Translations under genes and position numbers: made by a program
Origin: Deltaproteobacteria bacterium
GTDB lineage: Bacteria > SAR324 > NAC60-12
Length of the DNA stretch: 61,218 nucleotides
Assembly: GCA_038150265.1 (NCBI GenBank)
Contig: JAYOTF010000020.1
Span: forward strand, 1 to 61,218
Direction: 5' to 3'
The notes under the pieces: model-generated
What the model was told of the DNA's origin: nothing
Databases searched by the model: none
Seen by the model: the letters and a program-made list of their open reading frames with translations, nothing else
Shown here: one piece after another, positions 12,801 through 61,218 of the stretch
Numbering within the stretch: position 1 is the first letter of the stretch
How the letters are laid out: each line of letters opens with the position of its first letter

Positions 12801-13484
12801 TACCTCCGGACCGGAGACTACGAAGATGGAACCATTGGGGAAATCTTTGTGGACATGCACAAGGAAGGCGCGGCCTTCCGGAGCCTGATGAACTGCTTCG
12901 CCATTGCGGTTTCACTTGGGTTGCAGCATGGGGTGCCGCTGGAGGAATTTGTGGACGCCTTCATCTTCACGCGCTTCGAGCCCAACGGCATGGTCCAGGG
13001 CAACGACTCGATCAAGATGAGCACGTCCATCATCGACTACATCTTCCGGGAGCTCGCGGTCACCTACCTGGGACGCAGCGACCTCGCTCATGTGTCGTCC
13101 GATGACCTTGCCAGCAGCGAGGTCCACACCCGGCGTGAGCCAGACTTCGAGAGCGAAACCGTGGTCTCGGAGCGGACGTTGAGCGGCAAGGAGGCAGAAG
13201 CCTTCCTCCGTCACGAAGATGACGATCACGTCTATGCCTTTGCCGAAGACTACGGCGTGGATGTGACGCTGCTGGAAAAAGCCTCGACCGCCACGGAACT
13301 GGAGTACGTCTCTGGCTCCGAAGGGGGGTGGAAGGCCGAGCGGTCTCAGGCCGATCTGGTCCAGGAAGCTCGCCTCAAGGGGTACGAAGGCGAACCCTGC
13401 ACCACCTGTGGTCAGTTTACGATGGTCCGGAATGGCTCCTGCCTCAAATGCGCTTCCTGTGGCGCGACCAGTGGTTGCTCCTGA
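9828..13484 (+). CDS. nrdJ: vitamin B12-dependent (class II) ribonucleotide reductase
   Basis: [33 protein letters not shown]-like C-terminal region, terminal CxxC..CxxCG.TSGCS. Confidence 0.95.
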
Positions 13485-13532: not shown

Positions 13533-14843
13533 ATGAGGTTCCGTCGCTCCCCCGCTCCGCGGCGAGGGATCGCCTTGTTTCTCACCTTGGTGGTCCTCTC
13601 GCTCATTGCGGTCTTTCTGACCGAATTTTCCTTTGAAACCACCCTGGAGGTCCGCTCCCTTCAGAACTCCCAGTCGTCCTTCCAGGCCCGGAATGCCGTC
13701 AAGTCGCTCTTCAAGGCCGTTCTGGTCGGACTGCAGGGCGGGCAGGATGGCAAGATGGCGGAGGTGGACTTCTTTGAGCAGATTGCGCCCCTGCTGCAGT
13801 TTGCCCAGGGCATTCAGCAAGGCTCCGGGCTGGGAGGGCTCCCGCTGGAGGAAGGCGCGGCTCCTGCTGGCGAGGTGCCGCCGGTGTCGTTCCTCAACCC
13901 TCCGGACCTGACGGTCATTCCGGAGGAGCTGGTTCAGTACGCGCTTCCGGAGTTCTATGCGAGCTTCGCCGATGTCACCTTCTACACGCCGTCCATCCGT
14001 CCGATCGATCACCTCTACAACCTGAATCGGGTGCAGTCGAGCGGTCGAACGCTGGAGCCGGAGCGGACCAAACCCGATATTCAATTGACCAACCAGTTTC
14101 TCAACCTGCTGAACACGGACGCGTATCAAAGTGAAGAGGAGGGAGGGTACGTCTTCAATGACTCCCTTGCGTTGGGGACTTACGGCAGGCTGTTTGACTG
14201 GATTGACAAGGACGACTCGGTGTTTCAGTCCAATTACGGAGGGGTGACAGGGAATGAGATTGGCTACCGGGGGCAGGCGATTGAGTACCCGATCAAAAAC
14301 GGATTCCTCGAGCGCGTGGAGGAGGTGTTTCTCCTGCTGCCGCAAGCGGAGCCACGCCTGCCGGATGCGTTTTGGCTGCAGCACTTCACGGTCTATCCCG
14401 TGGGAGACGCGTGGGATCCGCAGCAGGATGCCCGTGAAGTGAACGCCCGCATCAACGTCAACCTGGCCACGTCTGAGGAGGTTGAGGCCTTTCTCAATCG
14501 TTTTGATCAAGATACCAACTACCTGAGTACGCTTGGGGGGTACGACGAGACGGCTGCTGGGTTCTTTCAAAAACGGACCGAGTTGGCGGAAGCCCTGAGC
14601 ACGCTGAGAGAATCGACAGGGGGAGCGACCCAAAAGGACATTGATGCCAAGGTGGGGGGCATTGTCTCGAAGGGGCTTGCCAGCGATTACTTCACCCCGT
14701 TCAGCTACTGGTACGAAATCCGGTTGCGGGCCGCGGTGGGGGGCGTGACGTCTGAGGTCCGGGCCGTGGTTTCGGTCGAACGAGATAACGAGGGGCTGGT
14801 GGAACCCAACAGCCTGACCATCCATGAATTTCAGCTGAGGTAG
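13533..14843 (+). CDS. GspK-like type II secretion minor pseudopilin
   Basis: Prepilin-like N-terminus RRG|IALFLTLVVL, conserved DWIDKD and RINVNLAT motifs. Confidence 0.75.
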   Translation: MRFRRSPAPRRGIALFLTLVVLSLIAVFLTEFSFETTLEVRSLQNSQSSFQARNAVKSLFKAVLVGLQGGQDGKMAEVDFFEQIAPLLQFAQGIQQGSGLGGLPLEEGAAPAGEVPPVSFLNPPDLTVIPEELVQYALPEFYASFADVTFYTPSIRPIDHLYNLNRVQSSGRTLEPERTKPDIQLTNQFLNLLNTDAYQSEEEGGYVFNDSLALGTYGRLFDWIDKDDSVFQSNYGGVTGNEIGYRGQAIEYPIKNGFLERVEEVFLLLPQAEPRLPDAFWLQHFTVYPVGDAWDPQQDAREVNARINVNLATSEEVEAFLNRFDQDTNYLSTLGGYDETAAGFFQKRTELAEALSTLRESTGGATQKDIDAKVGGIVSKGLASDYFTPFSYWYEIRLRAAVGGVTSEVRAVVSVERDNEGLVEPNSLTIHEFQLR

Positions 14844-53867: not shown

Positions 53868-55055
53868 TCAGTCCACTTGAGCCACAAACAGGGTCTCGAA
53901 CTTACCGTTTTGGTAAACGTTCACGACCAGCGGCACGGACAGCTGACGCTTCTGACCAAAGGAGCTCATGCCCACGTACTTGAGCTTGGCATTGCCCACC
54001 ATGTAAGGGTTGGCTGCTTCGAAGTTGACCATGGTCTGCTGGAAGGCCTGGACGTCATTGATCGCCTTCGGATTGGCCTTCAGGGTCTCCAGGATGTACT
54101 CGAGGGCGTAAACCTTGGTGTTGGACTCGTCGTTGTACTCGCCGAACATCTTGGTGTAGCGGTCCACGAACTCGCGCATCATGTCGGAAGCCAACTGCGG
54201 CGTGGAGGCGCCTCCAACGGAGATGAAGCCGTTGGCCAGTTCTCCGGCCCCTTCCTTGAGCACATTGGCATCCTGAGCCGTCTCGGTCGAGATCAGGCCT
54301 TCGTAGCCCAGTTCACGAGCCGAACGGATCAGCTGCGGAGCGTTGGCCGGAGACACACCAGACAGCACGAGCAGGTCCGGACGGGTCTTGATGACCGGCA
54401 GCACCACGGGGGTGAAGTCGGTGGTGTCCACCTGATAGGTGACGTTGCTGGAGACCACGTTCAGGCCCAGTGCTTTTGCGGCAGCCACTCCGCCGTCACG
54501 CTGGCTGAGCGGATCGGACTCGTTGGCGGCCACAAAGGCGACATTCTTGATGCCTTCTTTTTCCATCAGGTACTTGTAGATGGCCGGACCCGACTGATAG
54601 TTGGCGACCATGCCCAGGACGGCGTTGGAAGCCGGAGCGGTGTACAGCTCCTTCGGGAAGGCGTACGGGAAGTACATGATGCCCTTCTGCTCGGCAACCG
54701 GACGCACGGCAGCAGCACCGTCGTCCACGTTCGGACCCACCACGTAGTGGATGCCCTCTTGAGCCATTTTCTCCATGCCGGCAATGGCCCGCTTCGGATC
54801 CTTCTGATCATCAAATGCGACAATCTCGACATCATAGGTGGTGCCTCCAATGGTGACACCGCCCGTCTCGTTGATCCACGCCGCACGGGTCTCCATGGAG
54901 CGTTGGTTGGAAATGCCCCAGGCCGCTGCCGGACCCGAGGTGACGCCCACGAATCCGATCTTCAGAACCGGGTTGGCGGCGAAGGCTGACGTCCCAAAGA
55001 CGGCGCTGAACAGGGCCGTGGTGGCCATTGCTTTCAGGAAGCTGCGTTTTTTCAT
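53868..55055 (-). CDS. LivJ/K-like substrate-binding protein
   Basis: Signal peptide, SGPAAAWG, INETGG, DDQKDP, TDF. Confidence 0.88.
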   Translation of the reverse strand: MKKRSFLKAMATTALFSAVFGTSAFAANPVLKIGFVGVTSGPAAAWGISNQRSMETRAAWINETGGVTIGGTTYDVEIVAFDDQKDPKRAIAGMEKMAQEGIHYVVGPNVDDGAAAVRPVAEQKGIMYFPYAFPKELYTAPASNAVLGMVANYQSGPAIYKYLMEKEGIKNVAFVAANESDPLSQRDGGVAAAKALGLNVVSSNVTYQVDTTDFTPVVLPVIKTRPDLLVLSGVSPANAPQLIRSARELGYEGLISTETAQDANVLKEGAGELANGFISVGGASTPQLASDMMREFVDRYTKMFGEYNDESNTKVYALEYILETLKANPKAINDVQAFQQTMVNFEAANPYMVGNAKLKYVGMSSFGQKRQLSVPLVVNVYQNGKFETLFVAQVD

Positions 55056-55142
55056 TTGGATGACTCCTCTAGGCTTATTGAATTGAGCCGCTCGGCCCAG
55101 ACGCGGCTCCGCGTCCTTAGGCTGGCTCGGGCATAATCCTAA

Positions 55143-55186
55143 TCGTTAACAATCTTGTCAACATAAAACTTGGAATTGGTGCACAA
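55143..55186. promoter_or_regulatory. three candidate GntR/FadR-type operator boxes
   Basis: TCGTTAACAA (55143), TTGTCAACAT (55155), TGGTGCACAA (55177) fit TnGT-nn-ACnA and lie between the divergent SBP and GntR genes. Confidence 0.6.
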
Positions 55187-55286
55187 TGCCTGCATTTTTT
55201 CGGAGGTGACAAAAATGACATCGTCTGAAAGTTTGTTATCGTAGTAATGGATCCGCCTGACTGAACTGATTTTGAAGGAAACTCGT

Positions 55287-55991
55287 ATGCAACCGATGCC
55301 GGAGTCTCGAGAGGACGCGGAAGAAGAGTGGATTGTTGAAAAGATCTATGAGGCTGTGCTGGACCAGCGCCTGAGGCCGGGGGTGAAGCTTTCGGAAGCG
55401 GAGTTGTGTGAGGCCTTTGGGGTGGGGCGGATGCGCATTCGGCGCAGTCTGTTGCTGCTGGCGAGTCGGGAGGTGGTGGAGTTGCTTCCAAACCGGGGGG
55501 CCTTTGTGGCCAAGCCCACGGCGCAGCAGGCCACGGACATCTTTGAGGCGCGTCTGATCATGGAGCCCCCTTTGCTGAAGATGGTGTTGGAGCGGGCTCA
55601 GGCTCCGGACCTGGCCGAGTTGGAGCAGCACCTGCGTGCCGAGTCGCAAGCTCGGGAGGCCGGACGCCGTCGGGAAGCGATCCGGCTTTCCGGGTTGTTT
55701 CACACGCACGTGGCACAGCTTGCTGGAAACGCGGTGATGATGCGTGCGGTCAAGGACCTGGTGGCTCGCTCCTCGCTGATTATTGGTCTCTATGGAGACC
55801 CCGGGTTGACGAGCTGCCGTGATGACGAACACGCCAGCATCATTGAGGCCCTGCGGGCTCATGAGGCCGAGCAGGCGCAGGAGCTGATGGTGTCGCACCT
55901 GCAGCACCTGAAGGAGCACCTCGACCTGGGGCTGCAGAAGCATGCCCCGCAAAACCTCGTCCAGCTCTTTGCGGCCGAAAGCCTCTCCTGA
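55287..55991 (+). CDS. GntR (FadR/FCD subfamily) transcriptional regulator
   Basis: LRPG.KLSEAEL...FGVGR HTH, PNRGAFV, FH...AGN, EH..I FCD motifs. Confidence 0.93.
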   Translation: MQPMPESREDAEEEWIVEKIYEAVLDQRLRPGVKLSEAELCEAFGVGRMRIRRSLLLLASREVVELLPNRGAFVAKPTAQQATDIFEARLIMEPPLLKMVLERAQAPDLAELEQHLRAESQAREAGRRREAIRLSGLFHTHVAQLAGNAVMMRAVKDLVARSSLIIGLYGDPGLTSCRDDEHASIIEALRAHEAEQAQELMVSHLQHLKEHLDLGLQKHAPQNLVQLFAAESLS

Positions 55992-56170
55992 ACGACGCCC
56001 TGCTCCCTCGGCGAGCCGCGCTCCTGGTACCTGCCCAGGCGGCTCTCCGGGGCCGCTCTTCCCCTTTCCTCCTCCCTTTCCTCCCTTGATTCCTGGCGGT
56101 GTTTCCCGCGGTGCGCCCAGCGGTTTCTCGCGGTCTGACGCCCCTTCTGAAAAAAATCGCCTCCTCCAAT

Positions 56171-56197
56171 TAAAGAAATTCTCCCGACTGCCGATAC
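56171..56197 (+). promoter_or_regulatory. sigma28 (FliA) promoter, distal
   Basis: TAAA-N15-GCCGATAC (one mismatch to TAAA-N15-GCCGATAA). Confidence 0.75.
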
Positions 56198-56247
56198 CTG
56201 AAGCAAGAAAACAAGCCCTCTCGGGTGAGGAACTGACGGAAAAGCGT

Positions 56248-56274
56248 TAAAGGTTTTCTCGGAAGTGCCGATAA
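56248..56274 (+). promoter_or_regulatory. sigma28 (FliA) promoter, proximal, perfect consensus
   Basis: TAAA-GGTTTTCTCGGAAGT-GCCGATAA. Confidence 0.88.
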
Positions 56275-56320
56275 GAGAGGGAAGTTCAGGGAAGAGTTCT
56301 GGATCTCCCAAAGGGATCAG

Positions 56321-57203
56321 GCTCGGAACCACAACAAGATCTTTGACCGAAACAATCCTGAAGGCGGTTTGACAAATTATAGCTGGTGCGGTGTTGCCGT
56401 ACCCCGCCTTTGAGACCCGCAGCAACCCATCGGAATGGGTTGTCAAGACGCTCGGAAGTGAGTGTAGGTGGCCAGGAGCTTCAGACGAAGCGACCGCTAC
56501 CGAGAAAAGAGGCAGGATGCCTTGATTCCTCCCCCCAGTCGGGGACACCACGAAAGAGATGTAGATTTGAGTGCCCTTGGAAGGGTATTGGATCTAAGCT
56601 CCAGGGACGGAGCCCTTCATGCAGGTCGCAAACGGGAGTGCAACCCGTTTAACGAGAGCCTTCAGGACGTACCAGCTAAGGCTATGCCCACACCGATTCA
56701 GTCGGCATTCCTCTGAAAAGAGGGCCTCCTCGTGTTGAGATGCCCATGCACCTGACACGAGCCCGTAGGCCCTGGAATCAGGCCATAAGGAACGCCGAAG
56801 TGAATGAGGCCTCCCTCTTCGGAACCTCGTCGTGTGTCGTCTGTCTGCCACAGGTGCGGATTCGGACGTCGTGGTGCGCGCAGAAACCGGCTCGGTTCCG
56901 TGAGAACCGCTTCAGTCGGCTTTCCCAAGCGCCCTTCTCCTGGAACCAGGAGCTGCGTCTTCGCCCCTGACCAAAAGGCAGGAACCGTGCGAACCGATCG
57001 GTCGTCTGTGCGAAAGAAACAGGGCCTGTTCGTCGCCTCACTCTGGTGAGGGACGTCGGACTGAACCCCAACCTTTCGCCGATGCTGCAGGATGGGAACA
57101 GCGTCGCTTGCCTCACCGCCTGGTGAGGGGCGTCGGACTGAATCCGGATTTCCTGCTCAGGCAAACAGGATCGGACAGCGTCGCGTGCCTCACTGCTTGG
57201 TGA
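56321..57203 (+). pseudogene. highly degenerate short-flagellin remnant (fossil 1)
   Basis: Collinear motifs by eye: NHN 56327, GLT 56366, QD 56513, ALHA 56612, F 56708, LGSV/NRF 56891-56913, AKE 57010, AQAN 57155; multiple stops and frameshifts. Confidence 0.5.
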
Positions 57204-57222
57204 GGGACGTCGAACTGAACCC
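57031..57222 (+). repeat. three imperfect tandem copies, 77-nt period, each with a CCTCAC-loop-GTGAGG hairpin
   Basis: CG(G/A)ACTGAA at 57057, 57134, 57211; GCCTCAC at 57035, 57110, 57187; shared TGGTGAGGG(A/G)CGTCG. Confidence 0.9.
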
Positions 57223-57241
57223 GAATCCCTGGCCTTCGACG

Positions 57242-57640
57242 CGAACGAATCCGACTGTGTCTCTGACGCAGGGTTCCGGACTGCGCCGAGTGTCCAGACG
57301 ACTGAGCGCCGAGGTGCAGGCTTGCAGGCTTTCGTAAAGGCCCTCTGCTTGAAGCAGGCGGCTTTGCAGGAACCTCGAGCTGCACGAAGTTCTGAAGGAA
57401 GGGAGCGTGCGAAACGGGACGCCTCGGTCGAGACAGCCAATCTGCCTCACCGCCGAAGTGAACCCGCGCTCTGGTCCTCAGGTCGAGTGAATGGAACACG
57501 GACTTCAACCTTCCCCAAGGTTGTCCAGGCTCCACTCCATGCGGCCAACGGTTATCAGCGGCTTTCGAATGAGCCCCTTCCTGGGAGCTCCTGAAGACAG
57601 CACGATTGGTACGGCTTGTTTCATCAATAAAATTTTATTT
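57242..57640 (+). pseudogene. degenerate flagellin N-terminal-domain remnant (fossil 2)
   Basis: Collinear RLS 57299, LKQA 57349, RNLE 57368, VETA 57427, LTAEVN 57446, LHAANG 57535, FINKILF 57620, spread over shifting frames. Confidence 0.55.
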
Positions 57641-57713
57641 TCATTCCACTTACCGGTTCAGGGATGGGTTCGGTTAAGTGCTTTCGGGGAACATCTCGCT
57701 TGAAGGAGGATTT

Positions 57714-59321
57714 ATGCGAGTGAACCACAATATTGCGTCAATGACTGCCTTGCGGCACCTGGGATTGACGAGTAACGCGACGGAGAAAAACCTCCAGCGC
57801 TTGTCTTCAGGCATGAAGATCAATGCAGGGGCAGACGGTCCTGCAGAGTTGATGATTTCGGAGCAGATGCGGGCTCAGGTCACCGGCCTGAACCAAGCGG
57901 TGAAGAACTCTGAGACCGGCATCTCCATGGTGCAAACGGCTGAGGGCGCCCTCAGCGAAGTGAGTTCGATTCTCATCAACATGCGCCAGCTGGCACTGCA
58001 CGCTGCCAACGAAGGGGCCAACGACGAGAAGATGCTCCAGGCGGACCAGAACGAGATCGAGAATCTGCTCTCGACTCTGGACCGAATTGCGAAAAACACC
58101 CAGTTCGGAACCCGGACCCTCTTTGACGGCAGCAACTCCGCGTCCGGAGTTGTGGTCGGCGATGGCCTGAGCTTTGTCACGGCTTCTGAAAAGACGCAGG
58201 CAGCTCCGACCAAGAGCGGTTTTGAAATCGACATCAAGCAGGTGGCAACCCGCACTGAGGTGGTGGCCGACCGTGGCTTGACGGTTGAGGACCTCGATGA
58301 AGGGGTCACCTTTGTGATCAACGAAGGCAACCGCCTGGCTCGCTTGAACACCAAGACCGACGATCCGGAAATGGCGCAGAGCATCGACCAGCTGCTCAAC
58401 AACTACCGCCTTTCCCCGGAAATCTTCGACAAGTCCGAGGTGGAGAACAACATCCGGCAGCTGGTGGCTCGGTCACTGGACAAGAAAGCAGCTGACAACG
58501 GACTGAATGTGGATGTCTTCATTGACGACGTCGGCATGCTCAACGTGCGGCACAAGATGTTCGGCAGCGAGCCTTCCTTCAGCGTGACCTCCAGCAAGGC
58601 GGGAGTGCTGGCCAAGGAAGCCAACATTGCGACCTACTCCGATGGTGGCCGGGATGTGGCCGGTTACATCGGTGGTGAGCCGGGTGTCGGAAGCGGTCAG
58701 TTCCTTGAGGGGGCAACGGGCACACCGGTGGAAGGCCTGGTGGTGCAATACGACAAGGTCCTGGAGAAGCGGATCATTGACATCAAGGATGCCCAGGGCA
58801 ACGTCATTGGCAAGGAACTGGTCCAGCAGTCCAACGATGAGCTGGTTGGCAACGATGTGGACGGCTTTGCCCACGTCGCCCAGAACTCCCTGACCTACCA
58901 GGTGGGCTCGAACTACCAGCAGACCATCAAGTTTTCGCTGAGTGACCTGCGCTCCGAGCAACTGGCTCAGGGCATGGAGAACGGCAGCGGTTACCGGAGC
59001 CTGGCAGACATTGATCTGACCACCGGAGAAGGCGCTCAAGATGCCCTCTTGATGATCGACCGAGGCATTGAGGAAGTGAACGTCCTTCGTGCCAACCTCG
59101 GTTCGTTCCAGAAGAACGCCCTGGAGACCAACCTCCGGAACCTGCGAGTGGCCAGTGAAAAGCTGACCAACGCGGAGTCAGTGATCCGTGACTCCGACAT
59201 GGCGCAGGAAATGAGCGAGTTCACCAAGAACCAGATCCTGCTGGCATCTGGAACGGCCATGGCCGCTCAGGCGAACCAAATTCCGAAGTCTGTACTGCAG
59301 CTCCTCAACGGCGCTCAGTAA
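57714..59321 (+). CDS. fliC: flagellin
   Basis: SD AAGGAGG; MRVNHNI, RLSSGMKIN, QTAEGAL, RANLGSFQ, IRDSDMAQEM, AQANQ...VLQLL; large central domain. Confidence 0.95.
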   Translation: MRVNHNIASMTALRHLGLTSNATEKNLQRLSSGMKINAGADGPAELMISEQMRAQVTGLNQAVKNSETGISMVQTAEGALSEVSSILINMRQLALHAANEGANDEKMLQADQNEIENLLSTLDRIAKNTQFGTRTLFDGSNSASGVVVGDGLSFVTASEKTQAAPTKSGFEIDIKQVATRTEVVADRGLTVEDLDEGVTFVINEGNRLARLNTKTDDPEMAQSIDQLLNNYRLSPEIFDKSEVENNIRQLVARSLDKKAADNGLNVDVFIDDVGMLNVRHKMFGSEPSFSVTSSKAGVLAKEANIATYSDGGRDVAGYIGGEPGVGSGQFLEGATGTPVEGLVVQYDKVLEKRIIDIKDAQGNVIGKELVQQSNDELVGNDVDGFAHVAQNSLTYQVGSNYQQTIKFSLSDLRSEQLAQGMENGSGYRSLADIDLTTGEGAQDALLMIDRGIEEVNVLRANLGSFQKNALETNLRNLRVASEKLTNAESVIRDSDMAQEMSEFTKNQILLASGTAMAAQANQIPKSVLQLLNGAQ

Positions 59322-59409
59322 CCCCCGTTCCATCCCGAGTCCCTTGCTCCTTCTCCTTCGGGAGCGGGGGGCGTGGGGCGGAGGATGGGCGGACTCAGGG
59401 ACGTCCTTC

Positions 59410-59690
59410 AGCAGCATTGAACGCCAGTGGTGCTGGAGAACATTCCTGAGGAAGCCACGCCTCGTGCGACGCTTCTTCAGTCAGTTGAGTACCTGGTGGA
59501 GGTTCCTGGTCAGGAACCAACGGACCGGTCGGACCCATGAGCCTTTGGAGGCCAGTGGTTCAAGACCCTGGAAGTCCGCCCGCCTGAAGCATCCAAGCCC
59601 GAAGGGCCTCCTCAGAGGAGGAGGTGCGCGGGAGTCGTTACAAAACAAAAGGTTTAATTCCCAAGGATGGGACGAGTTTTTTCAAGGAGG
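59410..59690 (+). pseudogene. degenerate flagellin N-terminal-domain remnant (fossil 3)
   Basis: SSIER 59410, SQL 59479, VRNQRTG 59509 (cf. VKNSETG), VQ 59558, NKRFNSQ 59644. Confidence 0.45.
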
Positions 59691-59760
59691 AAGTGTTGCT
59701 TATGACAATGATTGAATAGGCCCCGGCCTGGACCGGAGCCACCATCTGAGGAGGTGGTTT

Positions 59761-61179
59761 ATGTCTGTAAACATGCAAAGCAATTGGGTTGCGTTGGGAG
59801 CCACGGTTGGCAGTTCTCCGGAACGTCAGTCAGGGCGGTCTCAATCGCAGGTCCTCAAGAAGCTGAAGCCCCGGTCCTCTTCTGAATCACCTGCTGTGAT
59901 GCACATCTCCGAAGGAGTGCGCATCCATGCCTCCAGTCTGGTTCACCAGATCAATGAGGCAGAGAGTGATGTTTCCCTGCTGCAGACCGCAAGTGATGCC
60001 CTGGGGAAGGTGGAAGAGGAGCTGCGTGAGTGGAGTGCGGAACTGGAGAAGGCTGTCGAAGATGGCTCGATCTGGGAAGCAGCCCGCTTGCGGGTGGAAG
60101 CTCACCTTGAGGAGATCGACCGGATCGCCGCGATGACGCACTACGGTGCCCAGAATCTGCTGGATGGCAGCCGAGCCCTGAAGGGCTTCGCTTCCGGAGA
60201 GCACCTGGAGTTCATCCAGGCAGACGGAGGAATTCCTTCCTCTCCTGCCAAGGGCTACCCGGTGGAGGTCAAGCGCTCGGCAACCCGAGCGGAACTGCGG
60301 GGGAAAGTTCCCCTGACCCGTGAGTACATCGACCATGAGGAGCGCCTCGTCTTGAAAGAGGGCAGCTCCGAGGTTCAGTTCATCACCCGCAAGGGTGAGG
60401 ATTTGGACGAGACCCTGCGCCGCTTGGCGCTGGTGATCCGTCAGGCCGAACTCCCGCTGGAGTTGGTCCGGAATCCTTCAGGCGTGCTTCACTTCCGGCA
60501 CGTCCAGTATGGAAGCCGCTCCCGGTTCAGTGGAGCCAGTGCGACTCCAGGAGTGCTGTCTCCTGAAGCCAATCTGCTGGTCGACTCCGCCCCTGGGTTG
60601 GACATCGTCGGCACCATCAACGGTGAGCCTGTTCGTGGAATGGGACAGCTGCTGGTGGGTTCGTCGGAGTCCTCCAAGTTGGCGGGACTGTGCCTGCGAT
60701 TCAATGGCACCGGCAACAATTTGGGAGAAGTCGGCAGTGTCACGATCTTTCAAAACGGAATCCCCCTCCACATCGGAGGAGGCGTCCAGAATGCGCGACT
60801 CGGTCTGAAGAGCATCCGCTCCAGCGAGTTGGGGGGACAGGTGCCCAACGTGTCCGGGTTCACCTGCCTTGCCGACATCCAACTGGATCATCAGGAGGAG
60901 CTGAGCGATGCCCGACGGGTGGTTGAGAAAGCGTTGAAGGAGGTCCTTCAGGCCAAGGCCCGGATTGATCTTGTCAACCAGGAACACCTGCAGGCGGGGC
61001 TGCGTAAGCTCCGGCATGACCACCTGGCGCGTCAGGGGCCCTTTACTCCGATAAAGGATTCCGGAACCGCCAAGTATGTGGCGCGGAACACGCGGATGCA
61101 GATCATGAAAGACTCCGGAACCTCGACGATGGCACAAGCCCATCAGAAACCGGAAACCGTGATGCACCTGCTGAAGTAA
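59761..61179 (+). CDS. divergent flagellin-family protein, paralog of the upstream flagellin
   Basis: SLLQTASDAL, EIDRIA..T.YG..LLDG, MAQAHQ.PE.VM.LL; central domain aligns with the upstream flagellin. Confidence 0.85.
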   Translation: MSVNMQSNWVALGATVGSSPERQSGRSQSQVLKKLKPRSSSESPAVMHISEGVRIHASSLVHQINEAESDVSLLQTASDALGKVEEELREWSAELEKAVEDGSIWEAARLRVEAHLEEIDRIAAMTHYGAQNLLDGSRALKGFASGEHLEFIQADGGIPSSPAKGYPVEVKRSATRAELRGKVPLTREYIDHEERLVLKEGSSEVQFITRKGEDLDETLRRLALVIRQAELPLELVRNPSGVLHFRHVQYGSRSRFSGASATPGVLSPEANLLVDSAPGLDIVGTINGEPVRGMGQLLVGSSESSKLAGLCLRFNGTGNNLGEVGSVTIFQNGIPLHIGGGVQNARLGLKSIRSSELGGQVPNVSGFTCLADIQLDHQEELSDARRVVEKALKEVLQAKARIDLVNQEHLQAGLRKLRHDHLARQGPFTPIKDSGTAKYVARNTRMQIMKDSGTSTMAQAHQKPETVMHLLK

Positions 61180-61185
61180 TACAAA

Positions 61186-61202
61186 GAGCCCCTTGGGGGC
61201 TC
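61186..61202. terminator. hairpin after the second flagellin, possibly the terminator of a convergent gene
   Basis: GAGCCCC-TTG-GGGGCTC preceded by AAA on the plus strand. Confidence 0.45.
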
Positions 61203-61218
61203 GAGTTCAGGTCACCGC

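Follow-up and report, generated by a model that had tools for sequence, protein, structure and literature searches.

The hag flagellin gene of Bacillus subtilis is transcribed from a sigma28 (SigD) promoter, and its leader, which is under 100 nt long, carries two CsrA sites as part of a Hag-FliW-CsrA partner switch. The sponge RNAs CsrB, RsmY and RsmZ are transcribed independently, end at terminators of their own, measure roughly 100-400 nt and carry many GGA loops. To our knowledge, few bacterial 5' leaders longer than 1 kb combine conservation, folding and expression in nature. CsrB and CsrC carry 13-22 GGA loops, as given in the available text of PMC6546359. In Campylobacter jejuni, the flaA leader of about 45 nt receives CsrA repression and also titrates CsrA (Dugar et al. 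2016, PMC4894983, available text). Sigma28-dependent small RNAs (sRNAs) derived from untranslated regions (UTRs) are described for Escherichia coli in the accessible part of PMC10578931, and a flagellar sRNA pair for C. jejuni in that of PMC11187230. Here we analysed the 1.72 kb gene-free interval between the end of a GntR/FCD regulator gene (55991) and the flagellin ATG (57714) on a contig of an uncultured SAR324 bacterium (assembly GCA_038150265.1, contig JAYOTF010000020.1). The window, i.e. the whole stretch of 61,218 nt that was analysed, is one contig of a 3.39-Mb genome with 61% G+C and 97.8% completeness. The interval gives rise to an expressed, selected, non-coding RNA with a conserved fold, kept tandem promoters and a family-wide architecture, and this RNA is probably the 5' leader of the flagellin mRNA, with a CsrA/FliW-type operator at its end, rather than a separate gene. 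Leaders of the hag and flaA type are tens of nucleotides long whereas this one measures 1.43 kb from its proximal promoter, which is the respect in which it is new. A title-level search of the literature on SAR324 flagellin, CsrA/FliW and long flagellin UTRs returned no description of kilobase flagellin leaders. The flagellin that bears this leader is the most conserved one in a phylum of uncultured marine and estuarine bacteria that is abundant worldwide.

Two sigma28 (FliA) promoters of the form TAAAG-N14-GCCGATA start at 56171 (P1) and 56248 (P2), 77 bp apart, and lie 1543 and 1466 nt before the flagellin ATG, respectively. The strict consensus had a single match in the window, P2, and none in 100 shuffles, and a slightly relaxed pattern found only four sites in the whole genome, two of which were P1 and P2; the promoters exceed chance expectation by both the shuffle and the genome counts. 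One further relaxed site precedes another flagellin gene by 72 nt, so that the motif is validated in the host organism, and fliA is itself present in the genome (profile score 262.8 bits). No sigma28-like site was found closer to the flagellin ATG than P2. An earlier reading, made from the letters of the window alone and called here the sequence-only reading, had proposed two sigma28 promoters 77 bp apart, the second of them perfect, and no consensus site near the flagellin start, and it was right on both counts. Tandem sites, 76-78 bp apart and followed by a spacer of 1.39-1.49 kb, occur in all three species of the genus, namely the host (G000) and its sister species G002 and G001. P1 is the first of the pair kept in both sisters, and P2 falls inside a 23-nt run identical in G002. 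The G002 locus is colinear with the window, and in G001 promoters, leader and flagellin form a unit whose upstream surroundings differ.

Flagellin orthologues with 54-96% identity are present in most genera of the family. In the family genomes with enough upstream sequence (24 leaders, 458-1744 nt long), the nearest sigma28 site lay 492-1777 nt upstream of the orthologous flagellin in 24 of 24 genomes, representing 10 genera. When an initial set of 24 loci was inspected with up to 1.5 kb of upstream sequence, 17 had a consensus site 835-1487 nt before the ATG; among the other seven, three were cut by contig ends and four had the site at 1565-1777 nt once 3 kb was examined. Three further genera had it at 492, 1010 and 1039 nt. 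Two other genera had a second sigma28 site 70-85 nt upstream of the first and a third genus had one 162 nt upstream of it, and more degenerate second sites were present within several other leaders. No long open reading frame (ORF) intervened between promoter and gene in the A+T-rich family genomes, in which such an absence is meaningful. The leaders of eight other genomes folded with z-scores of -2.9 to -9.3. Leader sequences could not be aligned between genera. In nearly all of the 10 genera examined, a AAAATAATATTTT-type element preceded the ATG by 60-100 nt, with a hairpin and then the Shine-Dalgarno sequence after it. Among the 17 flagellin-like matches of the host genome, only this one has a long leader, and three others have sigma28-like sites 72-165 nt upstream. 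The host carries about 15 flagellin paralogues (contigs C6 482-9443, C13, C5, C23, C11, C41, C42 and C66), six of which stand in tandem on C6 without sigma28-like sites. Five flagellin loci outside the family, which may not be orthologues, have short leaders; in one of them the sigma28 site is 128 nt away, and in two an upstream ORF ends at a distance of 152-322 nt. In many family genomes (e.g. G022:C34, G017:C94, G004:C47, G024:C261, G014:C344 and G062:C26) the contig begins 1-330 nt from the start of the orthologous flagellin and the leader is missing. Such breaks are probably assembly breaks at the conserved flagellin N-terminus common to the paralogues, and the leader is therefore under-sampled in assemblies.

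Part of the stretch is contained in 9 RNA runs among the 22 public runs listed. Four salt-marsh metatranscriptome runs (X6, X7, X10 and X12) were compared with 54500-61218, and their RNA-library contigs matched with 0-4 mismatches. Contigs of X6 cover 56283-56521, 56529-56890 and 56907-57117, those of X7 cover 56378-56700 and 56817-57088, one of X10 covers 56364-56979, and those of X12 cover 56453-56699, 56924-57306 and 57464-57600. Combined, they cover 56283-57306 and 57464-57600 of the leader, which is thus represented in RNA libraries. No contigs were present at 54948-56067 in any of the four runs and few at 57412-57635, gaps which carry no evidential weight. The 5'-most contig, from X6, starts at 56283, 9 nt past the -10 element of P2. 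This agrees with the start near 56281 predicted from the sequence; the contigs carry neither strand nor true 5' or 3' ends, and to that extent the predicted starts, there and near 56204, are not fixed by them. We assigned the transcript to the plus strand because of the promoter orientation, the G-U pairs in conserved helices, the asymmetry of GGA (44) over TCC (25), and the energy of the consensus fold described below, which is slightly better on the plus strand (-107.1) than on the minus strand (-101.3). Continuity with the gene was seen in the sister species. Two Joint Genome Institute (JGI) contigs, Ga0182072_1319250 (3128 nt) and Ga0182073_1328426 (3124 nt), are 99% identical to G001; both start 16-18 nt after the predicted P1 start of G001, pass through the leader into flagellin and, compared over their first 2.6 kb, end by length about 9 nt past the flagellin stop. 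The matching ends suggest that they are transcript-derived. An X6 contig from a G001-like strain extends from at least 255 nt upstream of the Shine-Dalgarno region into the coding sequence, and hence crosses the AT-rich element that precedes it. A scan of 56283-57713 on the plus strand, blind to AU-only hairpins, found no terminator-like site, and no G/C skew was seen in the leader as a sign of Rho avoidance.

The absence of an ORF over about 1.45 kb, claimed from the sequence, was upheld. A hidden protein gene was looked for among 36 stop-to-stop frames of at least 25 amino acids (aa), compared with the two sister spacers, and none was preferentially conserved. Matches to G002 occurred in all frames, as expected from DNA similarity, and matches of the 36 frames to G001 were absent beyond the promoter and Shine-Dalgarno regions. 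None of the eight longest leader frames matched Pfam. A cmscan of 55000-59000 against Rfam 15, at E up to 10, gave two chance matches only, both outside the leader, and a scan of 11 related loci gave one chance miRNA match. No tRNA or tmRNA was found in the leader. A mobile element or repeat family was also rejected, as the leader matches only itself in the host genome by BLAST. No inverted repeats of 14 nt or longer were found at the leader, which argues against an invertible switch. A 44-nt match (86%) in G022 was attributed to chance because it lies inside a coding gene of an AT-rich genome.

Within the genus, the leader of the host is 64% identical to that of G002 (938/1460 columns), and the four-fold degenerate sites of flagellin are 61.5% identical (n = 260). 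Against the latter figure, the identical runs at 56318-56376 (59 nt), 56378-56449 (72 nt), 56587-56614 (28 nt), 56654-56699 (46 nt) and 57630-57716 (87 nt) mark two strongly constrained parts, a 5' domain of about 380 nt and the last 87 nt (Table 1). The intervening 900 nt or so has changed at a roughly neutral rate and in repeat number, since its 77-nt repeats number three in the host and two in G002, and G001 has two repeats of different sequence in the same relative place. Identical runs of 59-87 nt, together with compensatory changes, indicate selection on the leader.

The compensatory changes were scored on a consensus fold derived from a three-species alignment of 56275-56740. This fold has 110 pairs in 14 helices, with 89% of cells paired. 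Pairs changed on both sides numbered 25 of 110, as compared to 9.7 ± 2.3 in shuffles (none of 500 reached 25) and 0-6 in slid controls. A long-range helix of 10 bp, paired in all three species and showing one A-U to U-G double change, encloses a multi-hairpin domain of about 310 nt and is also present in the single-sequence minimum free energy (MFE) structure and in the centroid. The hairpin with the CGGA tetraloop has double changes in two pairs and an invariant loop GGA in the three species, and that with the UGGA tetraloop has double changes in three pairs and keeps GGA in the loop in all three. The MFE z-score was -4.0 for the whole leader (200 shuffles), -3.57 for 56283-56720 (none of 100 shuffles as stable) and -3.05 for 56721-57625 (none of 20), as compared to -2.7, -2.4 and +0.7 for three coding stretches of the window; as modelled, the folding of the leader exceeds chance. 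The hairpin-dense RNA of the sequence-only reading is thus borne out by the z-score and by covarying helices in three species. All nine hairpins listed there exist where it placed them, seven of them reappear in the predicted folds or pattern counts, and two of its GGA-loop hairpins, those with the CGGA and UGGA loops, are kept with covarying stems in diverged sister species.

Table 1. Features of the flagellin locus. Coordinates are positions in the 61,218-nt window; a dot marks a feature listed without strand.
Feature	Position	Strand	Basis or detail
GntR/FCD regulator gene	ends 55991		upstream neighbour of the flagellin locus
Distal sigma28 (FliA) promoter P1	56171..56197	+	TAAAG-N14-GCCGATAC
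Sigma28 promoter P2, perfect consensus	56248..56274	+	TAAAG-N14-GCCGATAA
Probable non-coding leader RNA of flagellin mRNA, about 1.43 kb from P2	56283..57713	+	RNA-library contigs, no conserved ORF, MFE z -4.0
Conserved structured 5' domain	56318..56699	+	identical G000/G002 runs, three-species consensus fold
Long-range 10-bp helix, 5' strand (UCCUGAAGGC)	56356..56365	+	pairs with 56658-56667
Hairpin with CGGA tetraloop, candidate CsrA site	56422..56443	+	9 pairs, 100% paired in three species
Hairpin with UGGA tetraloop, candidate CsrA site	56570..56589	+	helix 11 of consensus fold
Long-range 10-bp helix, 3' strand (GCCUUCAGGA)	56658..56667	+	consensus fold, single-sequence MFE
Three tandem 77-nt repeats, each a long imperfect hairpin	57021..57226	+	repeat search, predicted fold
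AT-rich perfect palindrome AATAAAATTTTATT	57626..57639	.	sequence; AAAATAATATTTT-type element elsewhere in the family
Proximal hairpin with CAGGGAUGG in loop, candidate CsrA site 1 of translational operator	57652..57674	+	in 87-nt run identical in G002
Shine-Dalgarno sequence AAGGAGGA, candidate CsrA site 2	57703..57710	+	AAGGAGG kept in most genera
Flagellin gene, 535 aa	57714..59321	+	Pfam Flagellin_N 4.1e-35, Flagellin_C 3.9e-19

The last 90 nt or so of the leader consists of the AT-rich palindrome, a GGA-loop hairpin and the Shine-Dalgarno sequence. The hairpin and the GGA-bearing Shine-Dalgarno sequence are identical in G002, and their motifs, including UUCAGGGAUGG of the hairpin, are preserved in G001. 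In its layout this module corresponds to flagellin leaders under CsrA control. The sequence-only reading named csrA, fliW and fliA as genes to be looked for, and all three are present in the genome: in addition to fliA, csrA (13607-13765, 89.7 bits) and fliW (13079-13438, 129.1 bits) adjoin each other on the same strand of contig C4. A Caulobacter-type leader controlled by FlbT/FlaF was rejected, as flbT (PF07378) was not found in the host genome, for all its completeness, by a search in which the Caulobacter control scored. Flagellin leaders of SAR324 genomes outside the family have GGGUCAAGGAUGA(C/U)C plus AAGGAGG at the same place, and two of them, L077 (G068) and L080 (G039), show this textbook CsrA hairpin in the last 60 nt before the flagellin start. 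The presence of hairpin and AAGGAGG in these short leaders suggests that the CsrA-FliW-flagellin circuit is phylum-wide. The AT-rich palindromic element is duplicated in G001. It persists even in genomes with 61% G+C and may serve as a promoter or weak terminator, mark a site of processing or be bound by a protein.

When set beside the systems described above, the locus shares with C. jejuni flaA a sigma28-dependent flagellin mRNA with GGA in leader stem-loops and at the ribosome-binding site, and also the combination of csrA and fliW in the genome with no CsrB-type sRNA found, as far as the available text of PMC4894983 describes that organism. It differs in scale, since the flaA leader has two adjacent GGA hexaloops within about 45 nt (same source), whereas the SAR324 leader of about 1.43 kb places a 380-nt domain 1 kb from the ribosome-binding site, with CsrA sites that are candidates. 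With hag it has in common the sigma28 promoter, an upstream GGA hairpin combined with GGA in the Shine-Dalgarno sequence, and an adjacent fliW-csrA pair, but hag lacks the long structured upstream part. The E. coli (PMC10578931) and C. jejuni (PMC11187230) sRNAs are likewise FliA-controlled RNA regulators from UTRs of flagellar genes; as presented in the accessible parts of these papers they are short and act by base pairing, while the SAR324 leader is ten-fold larger.

The leader starts with the constrained multi-hairpin 5' domain of about 380 nt, closed by the 10-bp helix and bearing the two NGGA tetraloop hairpins; about 900 nt of hairpin-rich, near-neutral sequence with the three 77-nt repeats comes next, and the AT-rich palindrome and then a module of the Bacillus hag and Campylobacter flaA type precede the ATG. 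In the mechanism that we propose, FliA released late in flagellar assembly would lead to transcription of leader and flagellin as one RNA. CsrA would bind the proximal module and block translation until FliW frees it. The 5' domain may add docking or folding control: it could supply extra CsrA sites, so that the flagellin mRNA would soak up some CsrA as flaA does, or it could act through long-range pairing with the ribosome-binding region, or protect a long untranslated RNA from decay. The findings suggest that a large RNA element extends the FliW-CsrA-flagellin checkpoint in this lineage. Its parts are concrete and testable, namely the two promoters, the 380-nt domain and its long-range helix, the pair of NGGA hairpins, the AT-rich palindrome and the canonical operator.

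Several points weigh against a flagellin leader of this kind. No contig of the host's own strain bridges 57601-57700 in the four runs, the join of leader and gene was seen only in the sister species, and the two JGI contigs may not be RNA-derived. Possibly the AT-rich palindrome acts as a weak terminator, as a processing site or as a second promoter, and the upstream RNA would then be partly independent. As the contigs are strandless, the direction of the transcript was deduced from the way the promoters point, from G-U pairs and from the asymmetry of GGA over TCC. In the covariation test, the structure came from the very three sequences on which it was scored, and two of these are close to each other. 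The CsrA sites are candidates by sequence, fold-free counts of GGA in loops are not above shuffles, and the conserved blocks of the marine SAR324 genus g11 hold GGA in stems. Lastly, neither nhmmer nor a search with seven typed motifs found homologues of the 5' domain in other genera, which may point to a genus-specific function or to conservation of structure alone.

A more ambitious form of the leader reading, which we hold to be possible but doubtful, is that the core flagellin message of the SAR324 family carries a new class of giant cis-regulatory RNA, i.e. a leader of 0.5-1.8 kb with autonomous domains, which would gate translation over a kilobase either by long-range pairing between its 5' part and the ribosome-binding region or by loading of CsrA at the distant NGGA hairpins. 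If the CsrA-loading route were true, the leader would integrate flagellar export status with a second input read by the 5' domain.

Somewhat less credible is a reading in which the 5' domain (about 56283-56700) is an RNA in its own right or a processed one, a sigma28-dependent regulator acting by base pairing or through a protein other than CsrA, with flagellin made mainly from transcripts started or cut near 57626; we regard it as unlikely. The distribution of constraint is as such an RNA would have it, in the first 420 nt or so and the last 87 nt with near-neutral sequence between, and the fold of the 5' domain is self-contained. Between about 56325 and 56355, 30 nt that include AAGAUCUUUGACCGAAAC are near-invariant in the three species yet unpaired in the consensus fold, as for a binding site, and the E. 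coli sRNAs (PMC10578931, accessible part) provide a precedent of UTR-derived, sigma28-dependent RNAs. The position of the AT-rich palindrome is conserved across genera and overlaps the only sigma70-like match (TTGGTA-16-TAAAAT, 57606-57633), but the -35 of this match is conserved in neither G002 nor G001, and the sister-species contigs cross the element. Moreover, no G+C-rich terminator was found, and BLAST found no second copy or target-like match of the domain in the genome. Two observations concern the unpaired stretch: its motif, at 56336-56355, holds an 8-nt palindrome, AAGATCTT, and GATCTTTGA recurs in 8 of 9 leaders of genus g11, about 162 nt past the start.

The sequence-only reading had gone further, to a free-standing, sigma28-induced multi-GGA sponge of the CsrB/RsmZ kind, which would titrate CsrA in trans and release flagellin translation. 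The leader resembles CsrB, RsmY and RsmZ in being non-coding and hairpin-rich with some GGA in loops, csrA and fliW are available in the genome, and two NGGA-loop hairpins are conserved with covariation. The count of about 44 GGA triplets in the sequence-only reading was exact (44 at 56281-57713, against 25 TCC), and their number is weakly above chance, with z 2.3 against dinucleotide shuffles. However, the density of 30.7 per kb compares with 25.0 per kb genome-wide, and at least 44 GGA occur in 14.4% of 13,164 equally long stretches of the genome. The frequency of GGA in loops, for which equality with shuffled sequence would by its own terms speak against that reading, exceeded shuffles by one of two measures: the MFE structure has six GGA in hairpin loops as compared to 2.0 ± 1.3 in shuffles (1.5% of 200 reach six), this being the only positive loop measure, whereas the fold-free count of GGA in loops of 3-8 nt closed by at least four pairs was 9, with 7.1 expected (z 0.73). 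Over the 24 related leaders, whose genomes are kin, the fold-free count gave a mean z of +0.49 for the sense strand versus +0.30 for antisense; GGA itself gave +1.00 (20/24 above 0) versus +0.10 for TCC, and AGGA +1.39 (23/24 above 0) versus +0.18 for TCCT. A cluster of six GGA within 100 nt (57081-57180) was informally judged to be within chance for 44 GGA per 1.4 kb, and the predicted fold places the majority of the GGA in the 77-nt repeats in paired positions.

In other respects too the leader departs from CsrB, RsmY and RsmZ. It has 31 GGA per kb, no terminator of its own was found ahead of flagellin, contigs of the sister species join leader and gene, and no CsrB/Rsm or other family appeared in the Rfam search, so that a separate titrating RNA is improbable. 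Nor would an RNA-based feed-forward switch be as unusual as was thought, since the sigma28-dependent flaA leader of C. jejuni is already an mRNA-derived CsrA antagonist according to the available text of PMC4894983. This precedent of leader-borne titration makes some CsrA titration by the abundant flagellin mRNA plausible, with no need of a dedicated sponge. The case also shows that GGA hairpins listed by eye from G+C-rich sequence occur at close to the chance level, and that such lists call for comparison with shuffles.

That the stretch is an evolutionary leftover, a decayed flagellin gene or inserted element serving as mere spacer between an old promoter and a live gene, is very improbable: the near-neutral middle of about 900 nt with its varying repeat number, the failure of leaders to align between genera and a 16-nt repeat of the proximal hairpin just after P2 (56284-56299 versus 57656-57671, 14/16 identical) would fit it, but that repeat is no longer than other chance pairs of the same search, tblastn of two flagellins against 24 leaders gave one match (E 0.084) as compared to two with reversed controls, Pfam matches and further genomic copies are lacking, the identical runs and compensatory changes show selection, and the long leader is retained in 10 genera.

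Pairing between the two ends of the leader was observed in predictions for genus g11. In nine leaders of this marine SAR324 genus (L018-L023 and L032 among them), the sigma28 transcript begins with 14 nt (CAAUGGAAAUCCUU) that complement the Shine-Dalgarno sequence plus start codon (GGAGGAUGCCAUG), 1.1 kb downstream. The pairing shows one compensatory change (G-C to A-U in G054, G-U in G058). For a conserved GAUCUUUGA block, pairing is predicted immediately 5' of the Shine-Dalgarno sequence, and the 5'-end duplex ranks 1st to 77th of about 145-207 windows. As modelled, it is a possible kilobase-range translational lock. A lock of this type was not seen in the host genus, where the 5' end ranks 61/271, 11/257 and 105/275 as a partner of the Shine-Dalgarno sequence in the three species. 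Anti-Shine-Dalgarno partners containing CCUCC, of -25 to -34 kcal/mol, were found there, but their positions in the three species are not homologous. For the unpaired, conserved 5' segment, pairing with the proximal hairpin is predicted in each of the three species (-12.4 to -13.4 kcal/mol), and other partners score alike.

A few minor features flank the locus. At 56050-56095, after the stop of the GntR gene and before P1, there is a pyrimidine tract that contains tandem units of 9 and 12 nt (CCCTTTCCTCCT). Downstream of flagellin, an ORF of 123 aa (59344-59715), with no Pfam match, may be FlaG-like, and one of 472 aa (59761-61179), with only sub-threshold Flagellin_N and Flagellin_C matches, may encode a hook-associated or cap-like protein.

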